Below are positions 214 to 15,556 of a stretch of DNA of 29,694 nucleotides, one piece after another (the stretch's first letter is position 1; each line of letters opens with the position of its first letter). The notes under the pieces were generated by a model. It ran no database searches. It saw nothing but the letters and a program-made list of their open reading frames with translations, and was not told where the DNA came from. This DNA is from an uncultured Clostridia bacterium (GTDB taxonomy: Bacteria > Bacillota > Clostridia > Oscillospirales > Ruminococcaceae), in the NCBI GenBank assembly GCA_947177695.1, contig CAMWVO010000001.1:1-29694 (forward strand), read 5' to 3'. A program made the translations under genes and the position numbers.

Positions 214-1368
214 ATGGCAAAGTTCAGATACGATAAAAAAAAGAAAAGACCTCTTGTAAAAAGAATACTGATACTAATTATTGCGGTGGCTATTTTTCTG
301 TGTATAATTATAAGGGCAATCCCAACAAGAGCGGAGTGCTACACCTAAAACCTTACGGTGCAGTCCTTTGAGACGGGAAAGCTTTCGGACGCTATCAGCA
401 AAGCCGCAGACGGAACGGACTACAATTTCATAAAGAATATCGCGGTGCTGTCCGGTACGCTAAACGAGGCGGACTACAGCGCGCTTACAGCTATCCCCAA
501 TCTGGAGATAATCGAGCTTGCGGGTACGGAGACCGAGGGCGGGATAATTCCCGAAAACGCTCTGCCCTCCCGCAATCAGCTTACGGTGCTGACCCTGCCG
601 AAAAATACTGTGGAGATCGGCAAAAACGCTTTTTCGGGAAACAGAAAGCTTGTCAAGGTCTTGATGCCGGCAACCGTTACAAAAATTGACGACTACGCCT
701 TTGCCGCCTGTGAGGCGCTGGAGGAAGTCCCCGTGTCGGCGGCTGTGACCTATATCGGTGAGGGCGCGTTTCAGGACTGCAAGGCTATAACCGAATTTGT
801 TATCCCCGCAGGGATATCGGAGCTGTACCCCAACACCTTCAGCAAATGCGGCTTTGAGAGCATTTCGATAGGTCCCGACGTGAAAAAGATAGGCGGCAGC
901 GTTTTTGCCGACTGCAATAATCTTAAAGATATCTACGCTTACGGCGAGGAGGCTCCCGCTCTGGACAGCGACGTTTTCCGCAACGTGAGCGCGGCGGTGC
1001 ACTGCTATGAGGATTCCGCCGAAAGCTACGAAAGCTGGAAGCAGAACAACATCACCATTTCAGCCGACCTTACGGGGGAGTACTCCCTCAAGGCGGAGGT
1101 ATCCGCAGAGAACAGCGAGACATATGAAACGGCTGCCGCAGAAACAGAAAAAACCGAGAATGACGAACCTCAGGCGGAAGCTTCCGAAGAGGAGGCTGTT
1201 CCCGCTCAGGGGCAAGCCGATACGCAGCCGGTACAGTCTCAGTCCGCACAAACTGCGCAGTCGGGCGGTCTCAGCGTGGGCGTTGTGATAGTTATTGTGA
1301 TAATGGCTATGATCATTGCGGTTCTTGCGACTGTTCTGGTCATGATGAAAAAAGGCGGTAAAAGCTGA
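214..1368 (+). pseudogene. BspA-type leucine-rich-repeat surface protein with signal peptide and C-terminal TM anchor, interrupted by in-frame TAA at 346-348
   Basis: SD GAAAGGAG then ATG 214 encodes MAKFRYDKKKKRPLVKRILILIIAVAIFLCIIIRAIPTRAECYT*, in frame with ORF 358..1368. That ORF has about 5 repeats of the type LTLPKNTVEIGKNAFSGN / VLMPATVTKIDDYAFAAC, an E/A/Q-rich stalk, and a TM segment followed by KKGGKS. GTG 358 has no SD. Confidence 0.75.
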
Positions 1369-3662
1369 TGGAGGACGCGGCGGGAAAAATTCTCCGCATA
1401 CTGAAAAAGCATGGCGAGATTTTCCTTTTATGGCTGCTGTGCATTGTTTCGGTCTCGGCGTCGCTGTATATCTATACGGAAAACGTCATAGATGTTTATA
1501 CCTTAGTCGGCGCTGCCGCGGCTGCGGTACTGATAAAATTTTATGACTTCCTGCGCAGCAAAAAGCTTGGGGGACTTATATACTTCGGCACGCTGATCAT
1601 TTTGGGCATAGCCGTTCCGTCTGTGTTTATCGGCGGATCGTGGGAGGACAGATTTGCGTTTGTAAGATGGTTTTTTTCCGGCGCGCAGGCAGAGGAGACC
1701 CGCGTCGGCTTTATGCTTACCCTTATGCCGATGATGACCTTTTTTCTTGTGTCGGCGTACTATTATTTTACAAGGATAATCTACCGTTCCTCGATGCTTG
1801 CGCTGGTATCACTGATACCATTTGCGCTGGCTGTAAAGGCGGCGGCTGTTCTGCCGTTTGCGTATGCGGCGTCCATATCGTCGGCAAATCTGATCTTCTT
1901 TATTATCGACGGACGCAAAAGGCTGCTTAAAGGATCGTCCGAAAAAAGTCAGACAGGCTCGGCGGCGACTGTCTATACGGATTTTGCCATTGCGGCTGTA
2001 CTGCTTGCTCTGATCGCTCCCAAGCCCTCGGAGACCCCCTATTATGAAAAATTCGAGGCTGCGGTAAGTATGTTCAGCTTCGGCGGCACCGGCGAGAACG
2101 AGTATCAGGGCGAGTACAAGCAGGCTTCGGGACGCATCGACGAGCTTTTAAGAGGCGAGAGCGTACTGCTGTATATTATCAGCTCGCCTGAGACAGCATA
2201 TATGAAAACACAGGTTTTCAACGACTACGACAGCGAAACGGGACTTTGGACAAATCCCGACGATACCGTATACGGCAGCAAATCGTGGCAGGAGGACGCG
2301 CAGCTTCTAAGCTTTGAAAAGCTTTCCTCGGCTGTAAAGCTGGCGGACGAAATGATAAGGGAAGAGGCTGAGGAATACGGCTACCTTGATGAAGAGGATA
2401 TGCTGTTCAGCGAGTACCCTTGGGCGGAGCGTCTTACGGAGCTTGCGGACTATCAGAGCTACAGCATTGTTTACGCCCAGAACTTTCCCGCGGTGTATGT
2501 TCCCGCTCCGCTGAGAACCACCGAGGTCAGCATAGCCGACAGCAGAGTCTCATGGATCGCCCGTTCCGACGCGGGTGAGATCTTCACAAATTTGCCGCTG
2601 CTTGCTCCTAACGCGAACTATACGGTAAGGTACTACAGCGAAAAAGGTATGAGCGGCATTATAGACAGCGGTCTGTGCGATATAAGCACGGAGGAATGGG
2701 ACGACTTCCTTTGGGACGCTATGTGGTATATAGACGGCGATTCAGAGGAATATTCCGTTCTGAGCAAATTAAGAAAGGAAAGCGCTCTTGCGGAACAGTA
2801 CCGCGAGGACTATGCAACGGAGGTATCGGCGGAAATACAGGCTCTTGCCGACGAGCTTACGGAGGGACTGGAGTACGACCGCCAAAAGGCAAAGGCTATC
2901 GAAAATTATTTTACGGGCGGCGGCTTCCGGTACGATCTTAACTTCGAGCCGCCCGAGGGAATGGATACTCCCGAATATTTCCTGTTTGAAAGCAAGACGG
3001 GAATATGCTCCGATTATGCGAGGGCTTATGTTCTGCTTGCAAGAGCGGCAGGTCTTACGGTAAGATACGCGGAGGGATTTGTTCCGCAGATGTCAGGCGA
3101 AACGGAGGGAACCTATTTCATTTACAGCGATAACGCTCACGCCTACCCTGAGGTCTATATCCCTGTCGTGGGCTGGACAAGGTTTGAGCCTACTCCCGCA
3201 GGCTATATAGGTTCGGGAGGAAACGGCGGCTCCGAGGACGAGGACAGCGACTATACGGCGCTTATCCTTACGGCGGCAGTTTTTGTGGCAGGCTTCGGAA
3301 TATTTATTGTTCTTGTACTGTTCTTTCCAAAAATAGCGGAGGGCGTGTTCAGGCTCAGAGCGAAGCGTGCAGGCAGCGGAAAAGGCGTTATCATGCTGTA
3401 CAACAGGCATCTTAAAAATGCGGAAAACCTGTTCGGCGAAAGCTTCAGAGCGTTTACTCCGGAGCAGATGGAGCGTTTGGCAAACGAAACTACGGGAGAA
3501 AGCCTTGACCCGCTGACAGATCCGTTCACCGCGGTCTGCTACGGAGGCGGAGATATAGACAGGGACGCATTTGAAAAAGCGTTCGAGTGCTACAAGGCTC
3601 AGGCAAAGGCAATGAAAAAAGCGAGGAAAAACAGAAAACGGCAAAGCACAGAAAAAAATTAA
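1368..3662 (+). CDS. TgpA-like membrane protein with transglutaminase-like (Transglut_core) domain
   Basis: Multiple N-terminal TM helices; GICSDYARAYVLLARAAGLTVRYAEGF...AHAYPEVYIPVVGWTRFEPTP (Cys, His, acidic residue); C-terminal TM plus DUF4129-like tail; TGATG overlap with the LRR stop. Confidence 0.88.
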   Translation: MEDAAGKILRILKKHGEIFLLWLLCIVSVSASLYIYTENVIDVYTLVGAAAAAVLIKFYDFLRSKKLGGLIYFGTLIILGIAVPSVFIGGSWEDRFAFVRWFFSGAQAEETRVGFMLTLMPMMTFFLVSAYYYFTRIIYRSSMLALVSLIPFALAVKAAAVLPFAYAASISSANLIFFIIDGRKRLLKGSSEKSQTGSAATVYTDFAIAAVLLALIAPKPSETPYYEKFEAAVSMFSFGGTGENEYQGEYKQASGRIDELLRGESVLLYIISSPETAYMKTQVFNDYDSETGLWTNPDDTVYGSKSWQEDAQLLSFEKLSSAVKLADEMIREEAEEYGYLDEEDMLFSEYPWAERLTELADYQSYSIVYAQNFPAVYVPAPLRTTEVSIADSRVSWIARSDAGEIFTNLPLLAPNANYTVRYYSEKGMSGIIDSGLCDISTEEWDDFLWDAMWYIDGDSEEYSVLSKLRKESALAEQYREDYATEVSAEIQALADELTEGLEYDRQKAKAIENYFTGGGFRYDLNFEPPEGMDTPEYFLFESKTGICSDYARAYVLLARAAGLTVRYAEGFVPQMSGETEGTYFIYSDNAHAYPEVYIPVVGWTRFEPTPAGYIGSGGNGGSEDEDSDYTALILTAAVFVAGFGIFIVLVLFFPKIAEGVFRLRAKRAGSGKGVIMLYNRHLKNAENLFGESFRAFTPEQMERLANETTGESLDPLTDPFTAVCYGGGDIDRDAFEKAFECYKAQAKAMKKARKNRKRQSTEKN

Positions 3663-3676
3663 ACGGAGGTCTGACA

Positions 3677-4429
3677 ATGACTGCATTGATAACAGGAGCA
3701 AGCTCCGGAATAGGCAGAGACATTGCACGAAAGCTGGGCAAAATGGGTATACGGCTCATAATTTCGGGAAGAGACAAGGAGCGGCTGGAGGCTCTCAGAC
3801 AGGAGATCGGCGCAAGACAGGTAAAGGTCATTGCCGCTGATATTTCCCACCGCGGGGAATGTCTGAGGCTCTATAGGGAGGCGTCCGCTTACGGAGTGGC
3901 TATCCTTGTGAACAACGCGGGCTTCGGACTTTACGGAAAATTCAGTGTCACCGAGCTTGAGCGGGAGCTTGACATGATAGACGTCAATATCGGAGCGGTA
4001 CACATTCTTACCAAGCTTTTCCTGCGGGACTTTTCCGCGCGGGACAAGGGCTATATCCTTAACGTAGCTTCGATAGCGGGATTTATGCCCGGACCGCTTA
4101 TGGCTACCTATTATGCGTCAAAGAACTATGTGATAAGGCTTACAGAGGCGATACATGAGGAGCTTCGCTTCCAGCACAGCAAGGTTTATATAGGGGCGTT
4201 CTGTCCCGGACCTGTGGATACCCGGTTCAACGATACGGCGGGAGTAAAATTTGCGCTCAGGGGGATTTCAAGCGAGTATGCGGCGGAATGCGCTGTCAAG
4301 GGTATGTTTGCCCGCAAAATGCTGATAACGCCTACGCTGTCCGTCAAGGCGGCAATAATCGCTTCAAGATTTCTTCCCGACGCTGCCGTTGCGTTTGCGG
4401 CGCGTCTTGTACAGTCGCAAAAGGGATAA
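3677..4429 (+). CDS. Short-chain dehydrogenase/reductase (classical SDR)
   Basis: TGASSGIG, NNAG and YYASK motifs. SD GGAGG before ATG 3677, so the ORF-track start at 3587 is too long. Confidence 0.93.
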   Translation: MTALITGASSGIGRDIARKLGKMGIRLIISGRDKERLEALRQEIGARQVKVIAADISHRGECLRLYREASAYGVAILVNNAGFGLYGKFSVTELERELDMIDVNIGAVHILTKLFLRDFSARDKGYILNVASIAGFMPGPLMATYYASKNYVIRLTEAIHEELRFQHSKVYIGAFCPGPVDTRFNDTAGVKFALRGISSEYAAECAVKGMFARKMLITPTLSVKAAIIASRFLPDAAVAFAARLVQSQKG

Positions 4430-4522
4430 AAGGCTGAGCCTTTACCCTTGCCGCCGTCTGTAGAAAAGGCTGTATGATTTTGCTTCCGAGACAGAAATTT
4501 GGCTTTGGCAAAAAGCTTGTAC

Positions 4523-4566
4523 AAAAGCGTCCTTTCCGAAACGGTTTCGGAAAGGACGCTTTTTGT
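4523..4566. terminator. Bidirectional intrinsic terminator between the SDR and the lipoprotein array
   Basis: Perfect 19-bp inverted repeat AAAAGCGTCCTTTCCGAAA-cgg-TTTCGGAAAGGACGCTTTT with A/T tails, directly after the stop at 4567. Confidence 0.9.
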
Positions 4567-5772
4567 TTAGCTGTAATTGATTATAAAGGTAAGTATGCGG
4601 TACTGTCCGTAGTAGTCAGTCCAGCTGAGACCGATATTTTCCTTGCACTCGGCGTTCACGCGCTCTATTACCGGAGTAAAAAGCTCCTCATTGTCCAAGT
4701 CCGCTAAAGAGGTCAGGTAAAGGTCGGTAGTGGAAAATTTCACCATTGCGCTGGTCTTGCGGTTTTTTACCGCGTCCATAATGGCGTTTTCCGCAGCGAT
4801 AAGAAGCTCTCCGTCCTTGGTGACGTCCGCGCCCTCGCGCACGAAATAGTTTTCCTCCGTGCCGTAAGCCTTCGGCGGCTCAACAGGGTAATCGACGATG
4901 GTGTGATTGTTTTTTATCACGGAGTCGGTAACCATAAAGTACTGATACAGAATAACGTCGGGATATTTCTTGTGCAGCTCGTCGTCGGGCTTGTCCCATG
5001 TTACGTCAACGTGATACCAGTTGCCGTTGAGCTTTACCATGTTCCACATATGGGGGACGTTGGTTTTTCCTGTAACGATCACGTTTTCGATGCCCGCAAG
5101 GTTGCACAGATAGGAGAACGCCTTTGTGTAGCCCTCGCACAGTGCTTTTTTACGCACAAGCGCGCCGTAAACGGTGTCCGAATATTCGTCCTCGGGATCA
5201 GTCGCGCAGTTAAGAACAAGGTAGTCGTGAAAAAATTTCAGCTTTTCGTAATCGTCCATGCTGGGCGTGAGCTGAGCTATAATGTCCTTTGCGGCTCTTT
5301 CCGAGGCGATGTTCATGCTGCTTATCTCATCGGCTGTAAGGCGGTAGGTGAAGATCACATCGAAGCCTTGCTTTGCGGCGGAATATTCTCCCAGCTTCCA
5401 GGTAGAATTATTGTTGAACGAAAGCTGTTCTATCCGTATCATTTCAAGTATTTTTCCGTACACCGCGGAATCCGTGGGAAGGGTGACGGTTTCTTTAAGC
5501 CGTCCGAGATTTTTCACGGTATCGTAGTATATCTCGCGTTCGCTGTCGGTAAGCGAATAGGTTCTGTAGTAATCCGTCTCCATTCCGTCTGGAATATAAA
5601 AATCAGCGTAGCTGTTTTTGGTGTTGTCGGGAGGAACGACAATTCCCGAGTCGAGGAGTGATCCTCCCGAATAAACATGGTATTCAACATTTTGTCGGTC
5701 GTTCCGATCCGAGCAGCCTGCCATAAAAACGCAAAGCATAAGCGCGGCTGCCGAATATTTGATTTTACGCAA
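4567..5772 (-). CDS. Transglutaminase-like/papain-fold lipoprotein, paralog 5
   Basis: TTG start with GGGAGG SD; lipobox MAGC; ALCEGYTKAFSYLC...HMWNMVKLNGNWYHVDVTWD (Cys-His-Asp). Confidence 0.88.
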   Translation of the reverse strand: MRKIKYSAAALMLCVFMAGCSDRNDRQNVEYHVYSGGSLLDSGIVVPPDNTKNSYADFYIPDGMETDYYRTYSLTDSEREIYYDTVKNLGRLKETVTLPTDSAVYGKILEMIRIEQLSFNNNSTWKLGEYSAAKQGFDVIFTYRLTADEISSMNIASERAAKDIIAQLTPSMDDYEKLKFFHDYLVLNCATDPEDEYSDTVYGALVRKKALCEGYTKAFSYLCNLAGIENVIVTGKTNVPHMWNMVKLNGNWYHVDVTWDKPDDELHKKYPDVILYQYFMVTDSVIKNNHTIVDYPVEPPKAYGTEENYFVREGADVTKDGELLIAAENAIMDAVKNRKTSAMVKFSTTDLYLTSLADLDNEELFTPVIERVNAECKENIGLSWTDYYGQYRILTFIINYS

Positions 5773-5887
5773 ATGCTATGCCTCCCGGTCGATCGGCGGA
5801 CGGCAGTTTGGTGTCATCTGTCATATCCGTCCGCTGACTGTAAGTATTGACAAGCGTCATCTACGCTGTAGATCAGCTATGCTGAAA

Positions 5888-7468
5888 TCAGTTGTATTCC
5901 GGAAACAGCTTAATGACCAGCGAGGTGCCGTCATAGCTGAAGTTCACAACCGAGGTGTTGAATTTGTTTTTCGCAGACTCGTATGCTTCCTCGTAGATAT
6001 CCAGAGCCTGCTTGCTTGAGCTGTCAAACAGATTAAAGACCGCCTCGTCGTAAACCGTCTTGTCGGAGCATTTTACCTGAACGGGAGACGTCTTATTCCT
6101 TGACGATTCAATCAGTCCGTCGCGGAGCAGTATGCGTGCTTCCGCCCAGCTTTCGGCAACGAGATTGTTTTTCACGAAATAATTGCAGTCGTCGGAATTT
6201 GCCGCGGGGTACTTGTAGTTCTGGTCGTAGACGGTACGGCTTGCGGTCAGCATTTCGTCCGTTACGCAGAAATAATCGTATCTAATGTAAGGCTCGCTTT
6301 CCGAACCCGACACGGCGTAGGTTATGTCTATATTGTACCATTTTCCGTCGATCTTGACCTTGTTCCACATATGCGGAGTACCGTCCGCATCGCCTGTGAC
6401 GGTGACCGTCTCGATACCCGCCTTGCTGCAAAGGTAGGAGAACGCCTTTGAAAATCCGCCGCAGATAGCTTTTTTATCCACAAATACTCCGTAAATGTCG
6501 CGGCAGTTGCCTGCGTTTTCGTCGTACACAACAGTTGACGCAAGAACATCGTGGAAAAGCTTTACCTTGTCGTATTCGGTCATATCCGAGGTTATCGACG
6601 CAAATATCTTATCCACCTCCGCGTCGATCTCTTTCTGCATTTTGTCGATCGCTGCATCGCCGTATCTGTAGAACATTTTTGAATTGGCAAGCTTTCCCGT
6701 AGAGGAGTTGATGGCGTACTGCATTTTCTTGTCGATAAAGAACATCGACGGTTCGTCGTCGTATATGATCTGGTATACGGCGCAGTAATCCTCGGAGGTA
6801 ACGCCTTTATCGTCAGAAAATACAATAGAGCTGCTGCGGTTTTCCGCCGCGTTTATTATTTCGTCGTAAATATACTTGTACTTTTCGTCAAGGAAACGGT
6901 AGCTGTAGGGTCTGCTCAGGTCGGAAGCCGAGGTATCCGCCGTGCTTGTTTTTTCGTCCAGATAGCCTGTGGTTTCCGTAACGGAGCTTGACGAGGCGGA
7001 GGACGCTGTCGTATCGGCAGGTATGGAAGTCGTCGGGGAAGTCTGCGCGGAATTTGCCGATGAAAGAGCCGCCGCTGATGATGACGCGGCTTCCGCAATA
7101 TTTACAGGAGTAGTGCTTGTAAATTCGGATATGGGAACGTTCGGAACGCCCGAAACGGTTCGCGCGTTCCCGTTGTCGTCATCGTCCGAGCTTTCCTCGG
7201 ACTTTGTAGTGGTGGCAAGCTCGGGACCCGATTCCGAAAATGCTGTGCGCTTTGTGGATTCCGAAGTCTGAAAGGTTATCGGCTCGCTGCTTTCGGAGGT
7301 GTCCTCGGTAAGGTACTGTACCGTAGGGCGGGATTCCTCGGTTGCCGCAATGGGCAGAGTATCGTCCCAGTCTGCGGTGCTGCCGCTGTAGCAGGCTGAC
7401 ATCAGCGAAGCGCAGAGCGCAGCCGCGCCTATTAAAGAAATAAATGCCTTACATTTGGATTCCCGCAT
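5888..7468 (-). CDS. Transglutaminase-like/papain-fold lipoprotein with long S/T-rich linker, paralog 4
   Basis: SD AAGGAG; lipobox MSAC; AICGGFSKAFSYLC...HMWNKVKIDGKWYNIDITY. Confidence 0.88.
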   Translation of the reverse strand: MRESKCKAFISLIGAAALCASLMSACYSGSTADWDDTLPIAATEESRPTVQYLTEDTSESSEPITFQTSESTKRTAFSESGPELATTTKSEESSDDDDNGNARTVSGVPNVPISEFTSTTPVNIAEAASSSAAALSSANSAQTSPTTSIPADTTASSASSSSVTETTGYLDEKTSTADTSASDLSRPYSYRFLDEKYKYIYDEIINAAENRSSSIVFSDDKGVTSEDYCAVYQIIYDDEPSMFFIDKKMQYAINSSTGKLANSKMFYRYGDAAIDKMQKEIDAEVDKIFASITSDMTEYDKVKLFHDVLASTVVYDENAGNCRDIYGVFVDKKAICGGFSKAFSYLCSKAGIETVTVTGDADGTPHMWNKVKIDGKWYNIDITYAVSGSESEPYIRYDYFCVTDEMLTASRTVYDQNYKYPAANSDDCNYFVKNNLVAESWAEARILLRDGLIESSRNKTSPVQVKCSDKTVYDEAVFNLFDSSSKQALDIYEEAYESAKNKFNTSVVNFSYDGTSLVIKLFPEYN

Positions 7469-7495
7469 CGGATGTACACTCCTTCAGTGGTAAAA

Positions 7496-8665
7496 TTATT
7501 CGTTAGGATCGGGATCGGATTCGTATATAAGCGACACATGAACGATATGCATATCGTCGTTGTTGTGTTTATAGGCGGAACGTATGTGGGTCCCGTAATT
7601 TCCGTTTATGTCCTCGATAATGCTTTTAAGCTCTCTGCTGTCGAAAAGTCTCGCCATAGCGGTAAAGTATGCGCTCTCGTCGGAAAACCGTATCTCGGCT
7701 TCTCTTTTTCCCGCAATACCCGCAGTTTTTATTTGTTCCGTCAATGCCTTGACGCCGTCCGCAGCGGAATAGAATATCAGGTTTTTTCCCGCGAAGTAGT
7801 TCAGTTTATCGCTTTCGCAGGGAACAAGACCGGCGCAAAGCTCGTCGGGGAAATGAGTATTCCCCTCGATCTCGCTGTCCTTTACCAAAAGATAGTCATG
7901 GCGGACAAAATCGGGATCGCCGCGTTTTATTGTAGGATCGTCCCATGTGCAGTCCACGTTGTACCAGTTTCCGTCCAGCAGTACTTTGTTCCACGCGTGG
8001 GTTATACCGTCCTTTGTTTTTCCGAAAGCAACATAGCAGGGTATCCGCGCTTTTTCGCAGAGAGCCGACATTGCGGCGGCGTAGCCCTCGCACTGACCCT
8101 CGCCTGTTACGAGAACTCCGTAAGCCGAATGGACGTGCTCCGACGTATCGCTGAAGGAGCAGTTCGTCACTATTTTGTCATGGAAATACACGATCTTATC
8201 GAAATCCGACGCGCCGTCGGGAAGTTCCCCGACTATAGTCGAAGCGGCAAGATCAAGTTCGCCGCGCTTGACCTCCGCGTCCTCACGTTCGTAAAGGTAG
8301 TGGAGCTTCAGCACGGATATCTCGCTGGACGGCGCATAAAACAGATTGCTGAGCCAGAAGTATTTGCGCTCCTGAGAATAGACCAGCTTATAGATCTTAT
8401 GAGCCGTATCCTTTGAGATCGGCGGATCGAAGGATACCGTATCCTTAAAATTTGAAACGGCGGTTTTAATTTTGTCGTAGATCGCCTTTTCTTCTTCTGA
8501 AAGGGACTCGTACACAGGCGAAATAAATTCGCCGTTTGCAGTGTACTCATAGCTGTTATCCGTGCCTGCCGAATTTCCCGCAGGCTCTTCCGAGACTCTC
8601 CGGCAGGAGCCTGTCATCAAAGTCAGAGCCGTGCAGAGAACGGCGGCGGCAATTTGTTTTTTCAT
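7496..8665 (-). CDS. Transglutaminase-like/papain-fold probable lipoprotein, paralog 3
   Basis: Signal peptide ending TGSC (non-canonical lipobox); GQCEGYAAAMSALC...HAWNKVLLDGNWYNVDCTWDDP. Confidence 0.88.
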   Translation of the reverse strand: MKKQIAAAVLCTALTLMTGSCRRVSEEPAGNSAGTDNSYEYTANGEFISPVYESLSEEEKAIYDKIKTAVSNFKDTVSFDPPISKDTAHKIYKLVYSQERKYFWLSNLFYAPSSEISVLKLHYLYEREDAEVKRGELDLAASTIVGELPDGASDFDKIVYFHDKIVTNCSFSDTSEHVHSAYGVLVTGEGQCEGYAAAMSALCEKARIPCYVAFGKTKDGITHAWNKVLLDGNWYNVDCTWDDPTIKRGDPDFVRHDYLLVKDSEIEGNTHFPDELCAGLVPCESDKLNYFAGKNLIFYSAADGVKALTEQIKTAGIAGKREAEIRFSDESAYFTAMARLFDSRELKSIIEDINGNYGTHIRSAYKHNNDDMHIVHVSLIYESDPDPNE

Positions 8666-8679
8666 AAAGTACCGAAATA

Positions 8680-10041
8680 TCAGTTGTAGATAACGTCAAA
8701 TTCGATCAGCAGCAGGTTTTCGTTGCACTCATCGTTGACGCCCTTAACGCCGGAAAAGCCCTTTGCAAGATTATTGTAGTCCATTTTTGCGTTGTAGACC
8801 TTATCGTAGACATCCTTGGAGCTTACAACGATCTGCGCTGTTCTTGTGCCGTCCTTGGAGGCTCTTTCGATCTCGGCTCTGATCGCCTTGTCCGCCGAAT
8901 CGAAATCGCTGTAGACCTTTCCGTTCTTCACGAAATAGTTCTGGTCGTTGTCAACGCAGGCGGGAGGCGTGAAGTATGTAACGTAGCTGCCGTTTGAAAG
9001 CTTCTTCTGACCAACGTGCATATGGGTGAGGTTATGGATGCCTTTGTCGGGTACAAGGAAGAAGTTATAGCGGATATTCTTGTAGTTGGGGGTCTGGAGG
9101 AGCGGGTCGTCCCATGTTGTGTCCAGATTATACCATTTTCCGTTGATATCCACCACGTTCCATGCGTGGGACTGACCGGCGTTTGTTTCACCTGTTACTA
9201 CCATGCTGACGATACCCGCCTTGTCGCAGAGATACTGCATAGCCTTTGCATAGCCCGCGCACTGGATATTTCCCTGAGCCTCTCCGCTTCCGAAAGCGTT
9301 GTAGATCGAAGAATTGTACTCGGTGATCTCGCTTTTGAGCTGGAATGTGGAATTGTACACAAGATAATCATGGAAAACCTGAAGCTTGTCAAAGGTTGTG
9401 GATTTTCCGTTTGCTTCCGTCACAAGCTTGTCGGCAACGGCGTCGATGGACTTCTGCATTTGGTTTATGGTAGCCGCGTCCTTTGTGAGATAGAACAGCT
9501 TGCCCACCTTGATCTTGGAGCTCATATAGAAAAGGCGGGGCTCCTGCATATAGACCATGCCGTATACCTTTGCCCATTCATCAAGGGAATAGGCGTCCTC
9601 CTCGCATATTTTGTAGCGGAGATTCTCGACGCCCGCAACGATATCGTCATAGAGCTTTTTTTCATCGGCTGTAAGAGTTGAATAGCCGTATCTTTCGGTA
9701 TTGGTTCTGGGGATATCCAGCTGCGGAGCGGCAGTTGTAGCCGACATTGCGTTGAGTACGTCTTCGTCGCTCAAGGTATCCGCAGGAGCGGGCTCTGTAG
9801 TGTCAGGTTCGGTAAGAACGTTTCCGCCCACGCCGGTAGCCGCGTTGCCCTCTTCGTCGGTAACAATGACTGCGCCGTCGGGAGCCGTCATGGTCACCGA
9901 ATTTTCGGGTCCGCCTATAACGTTGACCGAAGCGGAGCCCTCGGCGCTGTCGCTTTCGCCGCTGCTGCTGCATCCTGCGGCGATCATTGCAAACGCTGCA
10001 ACAAGCGCAGCTGCAGATAAGATTTTACTGTTTTTTACCAT
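8680..10041 (-). CDS. Transglutaminase-like/papain-fold lipoprotein, paralog 2
   Basis: Start reassigned to ATG 10041 (SD GAAAGGA); lipobox AAGC; IQCAGYAKAMQYLC...HAWNVVDINGKWYNLDTTWDDP. Confidence 0.88.
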   Translation of the reverse strand: MVKNSKILSAAALVAAFAMIAAGCSSSGESDSAEGSASVNVIGGPENSVTMTAPDGAVIVTDEEGNAATGVGGNVLTEPDTTEPAPADTLSDEDVLNAMSATTAAPQLDIPRTNTERYGYSTLTADEKKLYDDIVAGVENLRYKICEEDAYSLDEWAKVYGMVYMQEPRLFYMSSKIKVGKLFYLTKDAATINQMQKSIDAVADKLVTEANGKSTTFDKLQVFHDYLVYNSTFQLKSEITEYNSSIYNAFGSGEAQGNIQCAGYAKAMQYLCDKAGIVSMVVTGETNAGQSHAWNVVDINGKWYNLDTTWDDPLLQTPNYKNIRYNFFLVPDKGIHNLTHMHVGQKKLSNGSYVTYFTPPACVDNDQNYFVKNGKVYSDFDSADKAIRAEIERASKDGTRTAQIVVSSKDVYDKVYNAKMDYNNLAKGFSGVKGVNDECNENLLLIEFDVIYN

Positions 10042-10165
10042 AAGAATAGTTTCCTTTCCAATTTGCTCTTTGTCTGCGAACGCAGCTTTGTTTAAAAATG
10101 CTTTCACGAACGCAGGGGCAGGGGGAAAAAAGCTTACCCAAAAGCCTGTTCCCCCGCCCCGTTTT

Positions 10166-11830
10166 TTAGTTGTTATATGCTATATCGTACTCTACAACGA
10201 GGGTATCCTCGGTAAGATATGTCTGGAGTACGAGATTTTTTACATTGCTGTCCTTGCTCTTTGCGTATTTCTGGAATTCCTTCCACTGATCGGTATCGCG
10301 GAGAGCCTCCCATACGTCGCGGGACGTAACCCTGATATGAGCAACGTTCTTGCCTGCTGCGATAGCTGCGTCAAGCTCGTCGTACATACCCTGCTTAGCG
10401 GACGCAAGGTCGCTGAATTCCTTATTGTAAGCCTTGAAGTAGTAGCACGCCGTTTTGGTGCAGGCGGGAGGATTGTAGATCTTAACGCGGCTTCCGTTTT
10501 TCCTTGTTACGGTGCTGACGTTAAGGTGAGTATTCTTGATCATATCGTCATTTGCAAGGAAGAACAGGTAACGGATGTAGCTGCTCTTGCCGTAGGACGA
10601 AGTGGGGTCGCCCCATGTGGAGTCGAGGATATAGTATCCGTTGTCGCAGTAAACAACGTTCCATGCGTGGGTGCTTCCCTCGATGTTGTTTCCTGTAACT
10701 ACCATGCAGTCGATGCCTGCGATGTCGCAGAGGTAAAGAACGGTTTTTGCATAGCCCTGGCACTGGAGTTCGCCTCCGTCTGTCAGACCGTTGTAGATAC
10801 CGCAGGTCTTGTAGTTGCCCTGGAGGCTGAAGGTGTTGTTTAAAATTACCCAGTCGTAAATTACTTTAAGTTTGCTTACAGTGCTTGTATAGCCGTTGAC
10901 CTTGCTCATGATCTCGCTTACCGTCGCGTCGATCTCTTTCTGGGTCGCAGCAGCCTGGTCGGGTGTAAGATCGTACTGGAGGTTTATCATTCCGCCCAGC
11001 GAAACGGGAACAACGTTGGACATCCAGAAAAGCTGAGGTTCCTGATTGTACACGAGAGAGTAAACTCTTACGATATCGTCCGCGCCCATCGACGAGGGAA
11101 CGTCCACCTGAGTGTCAAAGTTTTCGGCAGCCTCAACTATATCCGCATAGAATGCCTGCTCGGTCTTGCTGAGCTGCTGATAGGGATATCTGTCCTTGTA
11201 GTTCTTGGAGTAGGCTGTTTTAACAGGGTTTGTTTTAGACGGCTTCTTTGTGGTCTCTTCCTCGATGATCTCGGTCTTTTTGGGAGCTGTGGTCGTCGCC
11301 TGAGTAGCCTCTGCGGGCTTCTGGTCGGTAACGTAGTCGGAGTGGATGAATGTGCCGTCCGCAAGCTTGTAGTAGCCTGTATCTGTTGCGGCAACTATGT
11401 TGATCTTCTGACCCACGTCGTATTTCTTAACGGATTCCGAGCCGACTATCGCCTGAGTTCTGGAGTAGCAGGAGGTCTTTATGTAAAGTGTCTCGCTGAT
11501 CTCGGTCTCGTTCCAGGCTTTTGCGGCTGCTGCGGAAGCGGTCGCCGCCGTAGCTTCGGTGGAAGCGGCGGTAGTTGTCTCCGTTGCGCTTGTTTCCGTT
11601 TCGCTTTCGGTAGTGGTATCCTCCGTAGTGGTCTCCTCAGGGACTGTGGTGGTTTCAGCGGTAGTTTCCGACTCCGTCTCGGACTCTGTAGTCATCTGAG
11701 TGAGCGACATGGACGAGGTGTCATCGCCCACATCGGGAAGTCCCGCCGATTCCTCGTCGGTTTTCTTACAGCCGGCGAGCATTGACGCCGCCATTAAGAA
11801 CGCAAGGATCAGACTAATTTTTTTCTTCAT
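10166..11830 (-). CDS. Transglutaminase-like/papain-fold lipoprotein with T/E-rich linker and SH3b-like domain, paralog 1
   Basis: SD AAGGAG; lipobox LAGC; SH3b-like segment at aa ~106-170; LQCQGYAKTVLYLC...HAWNVVYCDNGYYILDSTWGDP. Confidence 0.88.
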   Translation of the reverse strand: MKKKISLILAFLMAASMLAGCKKTDEESAGLPDVGDDTSSMSLTQMTTESETESETTAETTTVPEETTTEDTTTESETETSATETTTAASTEATAATASAAAAKAWNETEISETLYIKTSCYSRTQAIVGSESVKKYDVGQKINIVAATDTGYYKLADGTFIHSDYVTDQKPAEATQATTTAPKKTEIIEEETTKKPSKTNPVKTAYSKNYKDRYPYQQLSKTEQAFYADIVEAAENFDTQVDVPSSMGADDIVRVYSLVYNQEPQLFWMSNVVPVSLGGMINLQYDLTPDQAAATQKEIDATVSEIMSKVNGYTSTVSKLKVIYDWVILNNTFSLQGNYKTCGIYNGLTDGGELQCQGYAKTVLYLCDIAGIDCMVVTGNNIEGSTHAWNVVYCDNGYYILDSTWGDPTSSYGKSSYIRYLFFLANDDMIKNTHLNVSTVTRKNGSRVKIYNPPACTKTACYYFKAYNKEFSDLASAKQGMYDELDAAIAAGKNVAHIRVTSRDVWEALRDTDQWKEFQKYAKSKDSNVKNLVLQTYLTEDTLVVEYDIAYNN

Positions 11831-13193
11831 TTTGCATACTCTCCTTTTCTTCGCTTGTTACAGTATCCTTGATAATTTTTGCCTTGATCTTGGTAATACA
11901 CCGGTCCTCGGTAAGCAGGACGGTGAAAAGCACTCCGCCGTATTCGGCAGAGGGATTTTCGTTTTCTTCGGGGATACGTCCCAGAAGTTCGGCTATAAAG
12001 CCGTTCATTGTGTCAAAGCCGTTTTCCTCGGGAAGCTCTATCCCGAAAACTGGAAGTATCTCCTCGGGGTCGGCATTGCCCGCGATAACGTAGGTGTCCT
12101 CGGAAATCTCGGTAAGCGCGGCTTCTTCCTCGTCGTACTCGTCCTGGATATTTCCGACTATCCTTTCCACGATATCCTCCATCGTTACCAGTCCCGCCGT
12201 TCCTCCGTACTCGTCAACAACGGCAGCCATCTGCATTTTCTCGGAGGTGAGCCGCTTAAAGGCTTCTCCGCATGGGACGGATTCGGGAAGATATATGATA
12301 TCCCGCATAAAGCTTTTTGCCTCGGTATCCTCCGCGGATTCGGAGCCTACCAGACAGAGCAGGTCTTTAACGCAGATCATTCCCGCGATATGGTCGATGG
12401 TCTCCTCGTAGACGGGTATCCGTGAAAAGCCGCTTCCTATGGCGGCGTTCACAACCTCCGATACCCTTGCGGACATTTCCACCGCCGTAATGTCGGTACG
12501 GTGGGTCATTATATCCGAAACGGTAAGGTCGTCAAACTGGAAAACGTTGTTTATCATTTCCCTCTGGGACTCCTCTATAACGCCTGTTTCGTTGCCCGCG
12601 TCCACCATCATGAGGATATCCTCCTCTGTAACGATATCGGGCTCGCTGCCGGTTTTGGCTCCGAAAAGCGGAGCAAGCAGCCTTGTGAGCATGGAGGAAA
12701 GCGCGGTAAGCGGCGTAAGGACCGTCATCAAAAGCTTTACAAAGGGTGCGCAGAAAACCGCAAATTTCTCGCTTTTTGCCGCGGGCAGTCTTTTCGGTAT
12801 GCCCTCGCAGAAAGAAGTAAAGATCACCACCGTGCCTGTCATTATCAGGAGCGCGGCAATAATCTCCGCAAGGGGGTCGCCGTAAGCTGTTCCCTCGGCG
12901 GCTTCGCCGTTTACAAGACGGAACACAAGTCCCGACAAAGGCGCGAGAAAAAATATCATTGCCAGATAAGCGGCTGCAATGCCCGTAAGCGTTCTGTTCA
13001 CGGAAAACGCCGTCATAAGACGCGCGGGCTTTTCCGTCATATCGGCAAGCAGCTGTTTCCGTTTTGAACCGTCGGAATTTTTGAGCTTCCGCCAGTCGGT
13101 CTCGGTCACAGCCGATTCGCATACGGTGCAGAAACCTTTATAAAGTATGACTGCAAGAATAATAAGACTTCGGGGGTACCCGTCGGAATCCAT
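11814..13193 (-). CDS. CNNM/DUF21-CBS-CorC/HlyC 'hemolysin family' protein (putative Mg2+/Co2+ transport)
   Basis: N-terminal TM region (EGIPK), VTEEDILMMV, tandem CBS (DIMTHRTDI, GFSRIPVYEETIDHIAG, VVDEYGGTAGLVTMEDIVERIVGNIQDEYD), CorC-like C-terminus. SD GAAAGGA before ATG 13193. Confidence 0.93.
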   Translation of the reverse strand: MDSDGYPRSLIILAVILYKGFCTVCESAVTETDWRKLKNSDGSKRKQLLADMTEKPARLMTAFSVNRTLTGIAAAYLAMIFFLAPLSGLVFRLVNGEAAEGTAYGDPLAEIIAALLIMTGTVVIFTSFCEGIPKRLPAAKSEKFAVFCAPFVKLLMTVLTPLTALSSMLTRLLAPLFGAKTGSEPDIVTEEDILMMVDAGNETGVIEESQREMINNVFQFDDLTVSDIMTHRTDITAVEMSARVSEVVNAAIGSGFSRIPVYEETIDHIAGMICVKDLLCLVGSESAEDTEAKSFMRDIIYLPESVPCGEAFKRLTSEKMQMAAVVDEYGGTAGLVTMEDIVERIVGNIQDEYDEEEAALTEISEDTYVIAGNADPEEILPVFGIELPEENGFDTMNGFIAELLGRIPEENENPSAEYGGVLFTVLLTEDRCITKIKAKIIKDTVTSEEKESMQNEEKN

Positions 13194-13258
13194 AATCAAC
13201 TTCCTTTCGGACGATCGTTTTGTGTACAGTTCAGAAAGCGCAAACTGACACATTAAAA

Positions 13259-13287
13259 ATTATACAACAAACCGACAAAAAAGTCAA
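13259..13287 (-). promoter_or_regulatory. sigma-A-type promoter for the CNNM + lipoprotein operon
   Basis: TTGACT (13287-13282), 17-nt spacer, TATAAT (13264-13259). Confidence 0.8.
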
Positions 13288-13444: not shown

Positions 13445-14902
13445 TCATTGATGAACGGAGGCGCCGCCGCTTTCGCTTCCAAAAAATTCCTCGGCTTTTT
13501 TTACATCTATCCCGCATATGCGGTGCTTGGAGGCGTGTTCGCCGCGGCTGTAGACCCATACGTCGCAGGTGCCGTTAAAGCGCTGGAATATCGTGCGGGA
13601 CAGTCTCACATAGGCTATCCTGCTTTTCGGCACTATGACCGTGTGGAACTGGGAAAACGTGCAGTACTTTAGTGTAATGGTATCGCTTCCGAAGCCGATA
13701 CCCGTGGTAAATTTTGCCGTTATTTTTACCGCGATAAGGTACAGCGAGGGTATCTCTCCCATTATCAGCAGGAACTTCACAATGCCGCTCCATGCGGGGA
13801 AAAACCGAGCTGCGGCAACCGCTCCCACAGGCAGCAGGACTGCGGAAAGAAGCGGTCCCCAGAGAAACGGCAGTATATAGAACGGCTTGGGCTTCAGGGA
13901 AATATTACTCAGAGTAAAGCTTGGCAGCATCATCTGCATGGTACTCATAACACGCTTTTTGGTAGTTATGGGTACAAAGACAGGTATCTCGTTCTTGGAC
14001 TTTCCGTAGCCGGTGCAGCTGACGTGAACGGACATCACGCGGCATATTTTCATAAGCAGGTTCTGGCGCAGGTCGGCGCAGTTCACTTTGGAAATATTCA
14101 CATAATATCTCCATTTTGAAAAGAAACCGTTCCGCACCGTAATATCGTTTCCGCACCGCTGTATGCGGAAGTTGATGTGTCTCAGAAGATTGGATACAAA
14201 GGAAAATCCCCAGCCCAGCGCAAATATCAGCGTCAGCGCGACTGCGGCGGGGGTAACTCCCGAAATTATCCTCTGCATAAATTCCGTAACGTCGCTGACT
14301 GCGTTCAGGAACTGCTCCTCAAGCTGATCTCCCACGATACGGCTTCCCTGAATGAAAAGCGTGCCGAGGAAGATAATTCCCGAAAGTGTGGAGGAAAATA
14401 CCAGCGAAAAGAAAACCAGATCGGCTTTAGAGGCTCGGTAGGAGAACTTTGCGTTTGCGGACGAATTTGGGATATTGTTGTATATCTTTGTATAATCGGT
14501 TAGTTTCATGATAAGCTCCGCATCGGCTTTTTTTCCCTGTCCCAGAGTGGAGTGGGAGTCCGAATCGAGAGCCACCGTTACCGCGCGTATGGGACGAAGC
14601 CATATGGAGCGCGCGGCGGAAGCGCAGGCTACCGCCGAATAGGGTATGGTAAATTCGTTCCTCAGAAACATACCGTGGGAAATGGAAATACCGTTTTCCC
14701 CCACCTCAAAGCGTATAAAATACCACCTTAAAACCGCAAAGCCTATCATAAGCAAAATTACGATCAGATCCCAGTACGCGCCCTGAAGCCAGTGGTAAAG
14801 ATCGAAGTTCATAGCCGCAAGTCCGCGCACCAGCGGTATCAGGAGCATCCAGAAGTTTTTTGTGGTATATTTCAGAATGGCGATCTTATGCTGCCGCGAC
14901 AT
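13445..14902 (-). CDS. YdbT-like membrane protein with bacterial PH (bPH_2) domains
   Basis: About 485 aa with alternating TM pairs and soluble segments (GISISHGMFLRNEFTIPYS...SIWLRPI; TIFQRFNGTCDV). ATG overlaps the upstream TGA. Confidence 0.8.
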   Translation of the reverse strand: MSRQHKIAILKYTTKNFWMLLIPLVRGLAAMNFDLYHWLQGAYWDLIVILLMIGFAVLRWYFIRFEVGENGISISHGMFLRNEFTIPYSAVACASAARSIWLRPIRAVTVALDSDSHSTLGQGKKADAELIMKLTDYTKIYNNIPNSSANAKFSYRASKADLVFFSLVFSSTLSGIIFLGTLFIQGSRIVGDQLEEQFLNAVSDVTEFMQRIISGVTPAAVALTLIFALGWGFSFVSNLLRHINFRIQRCGNDITVRNGFFSKWRYYVNISKVNCADLRQNLLMKICRVMSVHVSCTGYGKSKNEIPVFVPITTKKRVMSTMQMMLPSFTLSNISLKPKPFYILPFLWGPLLSAVLLPVGAVAAARFFPAWSGIVKFLLIMGEIPSLYLIAVKITAKFTTGIGFGSDTITLKYCTFSQFHTVIVPKSRIAYVRLSRTIFQRFNGTCDVWVYSRGEHASKHRICGIDVKKAEEFFGSESGGASVHQ

Positions 14903-15399
14903 CAAAGCCCTCCTCTGCTGCTGAGATACTGCCGTATCTTTTTGTCTATTTCTTCCATATCGGAATGGGATAAAAACATCATTATCAGCCGTCCGCCGTA
15001 AGCGTTTATTAACAAAAAATTAAAACTTGTGTAGCGGGAAAGGGGCATGGAGACCGTTGTTGTATACTGCACCGAGGACATTTTCACATAGATGGTATTG
15101 TTGAAAAATACTCCCGAGCGTATAATTATTTCGTCCGCTGAAAGGGTGTAGCTTACCGAGCGGTACCACAGCGGCAGAATAATCATCAGAAATATCACAT
15201 ATGCTGTTACAAGCAGTCCTATGAATATCCAGATGATTATTTCGGGAACGGTGACCTTTGCCAGCGCAAAATAGTCGGGGTAGCGCGCTTCGAGAAAATA
15301 CAGCAGGTACTTCAGCGCGATGATGATGCAGATTATCAGCAGGAATGTGAATATCCTAAGGAATTTCAAGCTCTTTCTATCCGCGTAGTATTTTTTCAT
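14902..15399 (-). CDS. YdbS-like PH-domain membrane protein
   Basis: 165 aa, two TM segments then YTLSADEIIIRSGVFFNNTIYVKMSSVQY. Coupled to the ydbT-like gene. Start reassigned to ATG 15399. Confidence 0.8.
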   Translation of the reverse strand: MKKYYADRKSLKFLRIFTFLLIICIIIALKYLLYFLEARYPDYFALAKVTVPEIIIWIFIGLLVTAYVIFLMIILPLWYRSVSYTLSADEIIIRSGVFFNNTIYVKMSSVQYTTTVSMPLSRYTSFNFLLINAYGGRLIMMFLSHSDMEEIDKKIRQYLSSRGGL

Positions 15400-15467
15400 A
15401 GCGATCAAAAACCTCGTTTGTCCTGTAATTAATGTGGGAGACGCGATCGTCCCGCGGGTCTGCAATA

Positions 15468-15482
15468 TGTTATAGTATATCA
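15468..15482. promoter_or_regulatory. Overlapping divergent extended -10 elements
   Basis: + strand TGtTATAGT (15468-15476); - strand TGaTATACT (15482-15474). No consensus -35 on either strand. Confidence 0.5.
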
Positions 15483-15556
15483 CGTTTCAGCCGCAAAAAA
15501 GCGTTTGCGGAATTTTTTCAGCGGGAGTGATCAGGGTGTACGGAATATTCTATGAT

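Follow-up and report, generated by a model that had tools for sequence, protein, structure and literature searches.

Several described proteins have a transglutaminase/papain-fold cysteine core like that of the lipoproteins studied here. The best structural match to the latter is TglA of Streptococcus pyogenes, released on 2024-08-14 as a 'transglutaminase-like domain-containing protein' (PDB 9CRN) and apparently a single protein. The enzyme of Streptococcus suis known as IgdE is a cysteine protease that cleaves IgG specifically and whose residues 300-302 form an A-x-C motif, and its family was defined by this motif at the catalytic cysteine, with the exclusion of sequences that match Transglut_core at E 1e-6 or better (PMC5066943). 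The S. suis protein of PDB entry 4XZ7, also called SsTGase, has Cys302 as its catalytic residue (PMC5612097); from the shared residue number we infer that the 4XZ7 transglutaminase and IgdE (MEROPS C113) are the same protein. A review describes the S. suis protein, as a virulence transglutaminase, and TgpA of Pseudomonas aeruginosa as transglutaminases (PMC10318531). A Mycoplasma lipoprotein family, NCBIfam NF045980 (MAG6410 family transglutaminase-related lipoprotein), is also related in sequence; a literature search on MAG6410 returned only its listing in a transposon pool. The pseudomurein endoisopeptidases PeiW and PeiP (PDB 8Z4F) share the cysteine core and act on the cell wall. Here we analyze an array of five tandem lipoprotein genes with such a core, found in a window of 29,694 nt that covers positions 1 to 29,694 of contig CAMWVO010000001.1 (assembly GCA_947177695.1) from an uncultured Clostridia bacterium, a gut member of the Oscillospiraceae.

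Positions 4567-11830 of the minus strand are filled by five co-oriented open reading frames (ORFs), separated in the ORF listing by gaps of 14-124 nt and referred to here as slots 1 to 5. Slot 1 (10166-11830, minus strand like the others, 554 aa) begins with a signal ending in the lipobox LAGC and continues with a T/E-rich tether and an SH3b-like module before the TglA-like body, in which the codon of the catalytic Cys357 lies at 10760-10762. The ORF of slot 2 (8680-10107, 475 aa, lipobox AAGC, catalytic Cys codon 9259-9261) opens with GTG at 10107; its true start is probably the ATG at 10041, preceded by a GGAAAGGAAA ribosome-binding site, so that the likely gene is 8680-10041. Slot 3 (7496-8665, 389 aa, lipobox TGSC) has the shortest tether, with Cys192 (codon 8090-8092), His223 and Asp238 as its catalytic residues. 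Slot 4 (5888-7468, 526 aa, lipobox MSAC) has a long S/T/A-rich tether and its catalytic Cys codon at 6461-6463, and slot 5 (4567-5772, 401 aa, lipobox MAGC) has the corresponding codon at 5137-5139. A sequence-only reading of this stretch had described five co-oriented paralogs with these Cys-terminated signals, all of which are found in the translated ORFs. An alignment of the five proteins, in which slots 2-5 are 21-33% identical to slot 1, also bears out the shared Y..L...E...Y helix, with L220 and Y228 invariant in slot 1 numbering, and the common block C.G[YF]...LC...GI...H.WN.V...Y..D.T. The five-paralog array is thus confirmed as real, far beyond chance. That reading did not include the CNNM gene in front of slot 1, the tethers typical of each slot, the SH3b-like module of slot 1 or the solved full-length homologue 9CRN.

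Considering the evidence presented below, we propose, as the account that is on balance favored, that a CNNM/CorC-type transporter gene and the five TglA-like lipoprotein genes form one six-gene unit, and that a lipid anchor holds the five proteins on the outward side of the cytoplasmic membrane in this Gram-positive-type Clostridium. Each lipoprotein consists of a tether characteristic of its slot, an N-terminal alpha/beta domain, the transglutaminase/papain-fold core and a C-terminal alpha/beta domain. The paralogs arose by tandem duplication of a single CNNM-linked gene before the split of a multi-genus subclade of Oscillospiraceae, and have been kept since as distinct orthologous slots. 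All five would be active thiol enzymes that, as protease, isopeptidase or amidase, hydrolyze peptides or proteins in or around the envelope, sub-functionalized both in the substrate cleft and in the reach of the head from the membrane. In such an arrangement the heads of slots 3 and 5 would work near the membrane, that of slot 2 at an intermediate depth and those of slots 1 and 4 at the greatest distance, and the SH3b-like module would attach slot 1 to the wall.

The cysteine core is recognized in all five proteins by Pfam PF01841 (Transglut_core), with scores of 29.8, 30.9, 52.6, 42.6 and 42.1 bits for slots 1-5 against a gathering score of 23, and with E ≤8e-7 in every case. When Pfam was run on the N- and C-terminal domains and on the slot 1 insert individually, it returned no family, only noise at E >0.1. 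The residues C357, H388 and D403 (slot 1 numbering) are invariant among the five proteins as well as in 52 diverse relatives. Moreover, the Cys-His-Asp triad, followed after the histidine by Trp-Asn, is present in every one of the 197 array proteins from 40 arrays and five slots, which extends the earlier observation of intact triads in the five genes to their orthologues. Since the triad is kept in all of these sequences, each of the five slots probably encodes an active enzyme.

Around the active site, some sequence differs from slot to slot. The motif at the histidine is HAWN in slots 1-3 and HMWN in slots 4-5, and the residues before and after the catalytic cysteine are also slot-specific at a looser level, being QCQG, QCAG, QCEG, ICGG and LCEG in the five proteins as previously read. 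The proposal that these variable residues define sub-functionalized pockets holds insofar as slot-specific sequence does flank the active site; the residue after the catalytic cysteine, on the other hand, varies within slots 1 and 2. No alignment column was found that is at least 80% conserved within every slot and differs among at least three slots.

To describe the fold, a model of slot 3 was built with AlphaFold2 (AF2) on 52 relatives, with a mean predicted local distance difference test score (pLDDT) of 90.2. It shows three domains after a disordered N-terminus, the last of which is the C-terminal alpha/beta domain at residues ~290-381. The best structural match in a Foldseek search is S. 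pyogenes TglA (E 5e-19, template modeling (TM) scores 0.65/0.70, 358 columns), and a VIA-align comparison gives Z 28.5 over 322 residues, covering 41-381 of the model. A sequence profile of the five genes finds the same chain with E 5e-39, profile positions 111-435 being aligned to chain residues 10-358. The match therefore spans the N-terminal domain, the core and the C-terminal domain, as expected of a member of the TglA-like three-domain family, and the alignment of the model with 9CRN includes the C-terminal alpha/beta domain that had been noticed as a shared downstream region. All other matches are confined to the core: 4XZ7 (Z 12.5), LapG (Z 10-11), TG2 and factor XIII (Z ~9) and PeiP (Z 7.6), together with 3ISR and 3KD4. 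AlphaFold database entries carry this body joined to Ig-like, dockerin and wall-associated or surface modules, and one of these entries bears the name LytC-like amidase. The TglA-like body is therefore a widespread extracellular module of Firmicutes, carried here on a predicted lipid anchor and elsewhere on other devices. The family comprises 25,963 representative clusters (50% identity) at E ≤1e-3 and 210 at E ≤1e-30, and the database names of the relatives are only 'transglutaminase domain-containing protein' or 'hypothetical protein'.

The structural relatives bear directly on the chemistry of the five enzymes. A hydrolase activity is favored, as the closest relatives whose activity is defined, IgdE and LapG, act as proteases. 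If the proteins were instead true transglutaminases, they would cross-link glutamine and lysine residues of surface or secreted proteins and so build or stabilize a proteinaceous layer of the envelope. Their fold and triad are those of transglutaminases, as the matches to TG2 and factor XIII illustrate, and the 4XZ7 homologue and TgpA both carry that name in the review cited above. At 1368-3662 on the plus strand, 900 nt away from the array, lies the gene of a multi-pass membrane protein of 764 aa that has Transglut_core as its C-terminal domain (E 2e-21); we take this protein to be TgpA-like. However, the triad alone cannot tell hydrolysis from transamidation, and comparison of the flanks of the array loci revealed no obvious substrate gene conserved beside the array. 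The same S. suis protein, moreover, has been shown to be a specific protease (PMC5066943). We consider cross-linking as the common function of the five to be unlikely.

It is noted that the membrane protein gene at 1368-3662 abuts, at position 1368, a gene for a BspA-type LRR_5 protein (358-1368, plus strand), and that this pair stands beside the array only in the closest relatives (L002-L007). In the source genome, which is 77% complete, 12 of the 13 ORFs that match Transglut_core exceed the cut-off of the family. On contig C100, unlinked to the array, the genome encodes a sixth TglA-like paralog of ~415 aa. Close to it are rplM/rpsI and a tyrosine-recombinase-like gene, and its signal peptide lacks the lipobox cysteine. 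An unlinked paralog of similar size is present in most genomes of the genus; the locus noted for this observation is L085, 2853-4193.

The comparison of related genomes indicates that the array is old and retained, as had been suspected from the divergence of its members. In 41 fetched loci there are exactly five family members in a row, with a size pattern of ~560, 460, 390, 520 and 405 aa, and all 24 sampled genomes of the genus contain the array. In an even sample of the taxonomic family (150 near-complete genomes from 135 genera), about 10 of the sampled genera have at least four strong matches, tandem arrays included. A single strong homologue was found in 18 genomes, and the remainder had none at E 1e-60; most genomes of the family that have the gene at all carry one copy. 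Apart from the cultured Huintestinicola butyrica, which has the same array, the loci belong to uncultured Oscillospiraceae sampled in gut and rumen metagenomes of many different host animals. A maximum-likelihood tree of 106 proteins resolves supported clades for slots 1, 3, 4 and 5 with the topology ((s4,s5),(s3,(s2,s1))), while slot 2 falls into two groups whose placement relative to slot 1 is not separated. Mapping the slot labels onto the tree takes 16 changes, compared to 69.6 expected under shuffling. Because the clades of slots 1, 3, 4 and 5 resolve in this tree, the duplications predate the multi-genus Oscillospiraceae subclade that includes H. butyrica. Copy number and order are stable across ~10 genera and do not vary randomly among relatives.

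The exceptions to the five-slot order are informative rather than random. Several loci (L045-L049) have four-gene arrays without slot 2, and in one (L050) slot 1 is duplicated and slot 4 is lost. In two genomes a copy bears an internal stop codon, one TAG and one TGA (G137:C26:95376-96701 and G167:C28:13095-14345). The co-inheritance of all five slots would suit a complex, and the proteins might be subunits of one obligate hetero-oligomer, or else non-catalytic binding proteins or pseudoenzymes. An obligate complex is difficult to reconcile with the arrays that lack slot 2, with the one that has slot 1 doubled and slot 4 missing, and with the single copy in most of the genomes that have the gene. 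Conservation of the triad in all 197 array proteins makes pseudoenzymes very unlikely, and we give hardly any credence to either version of this explanation.

The N-terminal regions of the proteins provide further distinctions between the slots. All five signals fit a lipobox pattern modeled on PROSITE PS51257, as do 32-39 of 40 orthologues for each slot, and most of the misses are visibly lipobox-like or truncated sequences. Because the lipobox is conserved, the five proteins are predicted to be lipid-anchored at the cell surface. From the lipid-bearing cysteine to the catalytic cysteine, the median distances in slots 1-5 are 335, 241, 169, 307 and 187 residues, with a narrow range in every slot except slot 4 (192-334). 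The distance from the catalytic cysteine to the C-terminus is constant at ~191-196 residues. In slot 1 the tether includes a beta module of ~62 residues (residues ~105-170; 11321-11518, minus strand) with 17 invariant alignment columns, which is more conserved than the enzyme body. Its AF2 model is an all-beta fold with a pLDDT of 88.7. Bacterial SH3b domains that bind the cell wall account for most of the top 30 matches in the PDB (TM 0.55-0.67), but the E-values, 0.06-0.4, are weak; Pfam gives no match.

The lipid anchor would place the proteins between membrane and wall, a location that also suits dedicated peptidoglycan endo-/isopeptidases or amidases remodeling the wall at different depths. 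The slot 1 module, which resembles the cell-wall-binding domains of lysostaphin, ALE-1 and endolysins, is consistent with such a role, as are the AlphaFold database relatives fused to wall-associated or surface modules, the LytC-like amidase entry among them. The core fold is shared with PeiP as well, so that the comparison with PeiW and PeiP made in the sequence-only reading is sound at the level of the superfamily. It does not extend further: the PeiP match, Z 7.6 over 121 residues, is at the level of unrelated core matches, compared to Z 28.5 for TglA, and no Pfam C71 match was found at E up to 0.01. The five proteins are accordingly not assigned to the pseudomurein endoisopeptidases (MEROPS C71). 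The SH3b-like module, moreover, occurs in only one of the five slots, and the nearest characterized relative cleaves IgG. In addition, all five proteins match, below its threshold, the NCBIfam lipoprotein family NF045980, named after a Mycoplasma agalactiae gene. Mycoplasmas are wall-less, and because a related lipoprotein family occurs in them the body would not be intrinsically a peptidoglycan enzyme. A role of the five as dedicated peptidoglycan enzymes is a minor possibility, albeit one that deserves serious consideration.

The tethers are relevant also to the idea that the five are IgdE-like proteases directed at the host, each with its own target in the animal gut among host surface and immune proteins, for example a mucin or one class of immunoglobulin. 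The long tethers of slots 1 and 4 could reach past the wall, the organism, like its relatives, was sampled in gut and rumen metagenomes of animals, and the substrate specificity of the IgdE family is tied to the host species (PMC5066943). Yet the tethers of slots 3 and 5 are too short to clear the wall, and the retention of the same five slots in relatives from many hosts argues against host-specific targets. The similarity to 4XZ7 is limited to the core, and all five proteins fall under the exclusion that the IgdE authors applied to Transglut_core matches. With A-x-C found in slots 4 and 5 only, membership in the IgdE family (MEROPS C113) was rejected, and a battery of host-directed proteases appears decidedly improbable. 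What stands of the original suggestion is a battery of surface enzymes, supported by the lipobox, the triad and the retained array, whose substrates may be peptidoglycan, self proteins or host proteins.

The sixth gene of the proposed unit encodes a CNNM/CorC-type transporter (11814-13253, minus strand) with the CNNM transmembrane domain, a CBS pair and CorC_HlyC in Pfam, and its stop end overlaps the start of slot 1 by 17 nt. In every array locus such a gene immediately precedes the array in the same orientation, and the rest of the flanking genes differ from locus to locus. The pairing is seen also in the single-copy loci L055-L059, and in 10 of the 14 single-copy genomes from other genera of the family a CNNM gene (37-46% identity) has this placement too. 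Because the pairing is family-wide in single-copy loci and not found outside the family, the ancestral state was a CNNM gene with one enzyme gene, which then multiplied. CNNM linkage as a general property of such genes was rejected, as distant singletons stand in unrelated contexts (MarR, Band_7, NYN).

The CNNM gene and the five lipoprotein genes probably form a single transcription unit, judging from their spacing, a promoter-like site and a terminator. The promoter-like site is just upstream of the CNNM start at 13259-13287 (minus strand) and consists of TTGACT, a spacer of 17 nt and TATAAT, with 11 of 12 consensus matches as its only basis. At the other end, a hairpin followed by UUUUGU (4521-4566, minus strand) comes immediately after the slot 5 stop codon; with a folding energy of -29.8 kcal/mol (z -8.1) that none of 200 shuffles equaled, it is the probable intrinsic terminator of the unit. 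All six genes are covered by contigs from transcriptomic libraries (90-99% identity), which also run across the junctions between slots 5 and 4 and between slots 4 and 3, with DNA or related strains as a possible source. Between slots 1 and 2 there is a GC-rich stem-loop (10114-10160, minus strand; -32.3 kcal/mol, z -2.8) without a U-tract, which may serve in processing or transcript stability or may terminate transcription partially within the unit.

Several observations weigh against the account of a single unit of depth-graded hydrolases favored here. The stable stem-loop between slots 1 and 2 and the gap of 115 nt before slot 5 are not what would be expected of one uninterrupted transcription unit, and the transcriptomic-library contigs are no proof of transcription, since DNA may be in the libraries. 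A CNNM gene was nearby in none of 7 loci from other families of the order; being confined to one family, the CNNM link may reflect inherited synteny and nothing functional. The E-values behind the SH3b assignment of the slot 1 module are weak. The description of the S. suis protein as a transglutaminase (PMC10318531) makes cross-linking chemistry possible. Finally, a literature search on 9CRN and TglA returned no publication, and no function for any full-length member of the TglA-like family.

A more speculative extension may also be considered, in which the CNNM transporter and the five enzymes act as one envelope-maturation unit. At the membrane surface the transporter would supply or sense a divalent cation that controls five depth-graded thiol enzymes. 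These would act on envelope proteins by processing or cross-linking in successive layers, beginning at the membrane face with slots 3 and 5 and ending at the outer wall with slots 1 and 4. We regard this scheme as improbable; if true, it would be a spatially graded, metal-coupled surface-editing system, none of which is known to have been described in Gram-positive bacteria.

Two further regions of the window were noted beside the unit. After an SDR gene, a hairpin piece of ~35 nt at 4429-4463 has a summed depth of 1636 in a transcriptomic library, compared to 10-50 elsewhere, and joins many different flanks; it is possibly a small RNA, or else a terminator-like element that is repeated. Related strains have other sequence in place of the segment 4431-4523. 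Two adjacent membrane proteins with bPH_2 (bacterial PH-domain) regions are encoded at 13445-15483 on the minus strand, upstream of the CNNM gene, and their conservation at this position is limited to the closest relatives.

Gut Clostridia abound in surface proteins of the transglutaminase fold, and of the ~26,000 clusters at 50% identity almost none has a known substrate. The locus offers a natural experiment in this respect, with five long-separated paralogs that have invariant catalytic residues and slot-specific clefts and tethers, and the cultured H. butyrica, having the same array, makes it a tractable entry to a very large unannotated family. Finding what the five proteins do would give a function to that family, and would test tether length as a means of placing enzymes at depth in the Gram-positive envelope.

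We have compared the array proteins with the known systems introduced above. IgdE resembles them in being a secreted or surface enzyme of a Gram-positive bacterium with a Transglut_core-type Cys-His-Asp core, found by the profile at E 2e-9. However, only 141 core residues align, the flanking domains differ, IgdE itself is not a lipoprotein array, and its A-x-C motif recurs at the catalytic cysteine in just the two slots named above. The NF045980 proteins are also lipoproteins and share the core together with flanking regions, all five array proteins matching profile positions ~142-378 with E 1e-16 to 1e-26. The profile, though, has 622 positions and a different overall architecture, and membership was rejected at 60-90 bits against a cut-off of 450. 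PeiW and PeiP have the transglutaminase/papain-fold cysteine core in common with the array, and the similarity of PeiP to the slot 3 model is in the range of generic core matches. S. pyogenes TglA alone resembles the array proteins over the whole three-domain body, the Y..L...E...Y helix included, at only 17-18% identity; what sets the array locus apart from TglA are its tethers, the SH3b-like module, the arrangement in five slots and the linkage to CNNM. The array proteins are thus well-documented, functionally uncharacterized members of the TglA-like transglutaminase-fold surface enzymes and not a new kind of system, arranged in a five-slot array that is notably stable, linked to CNNM and equipped with slot-specific tethers.

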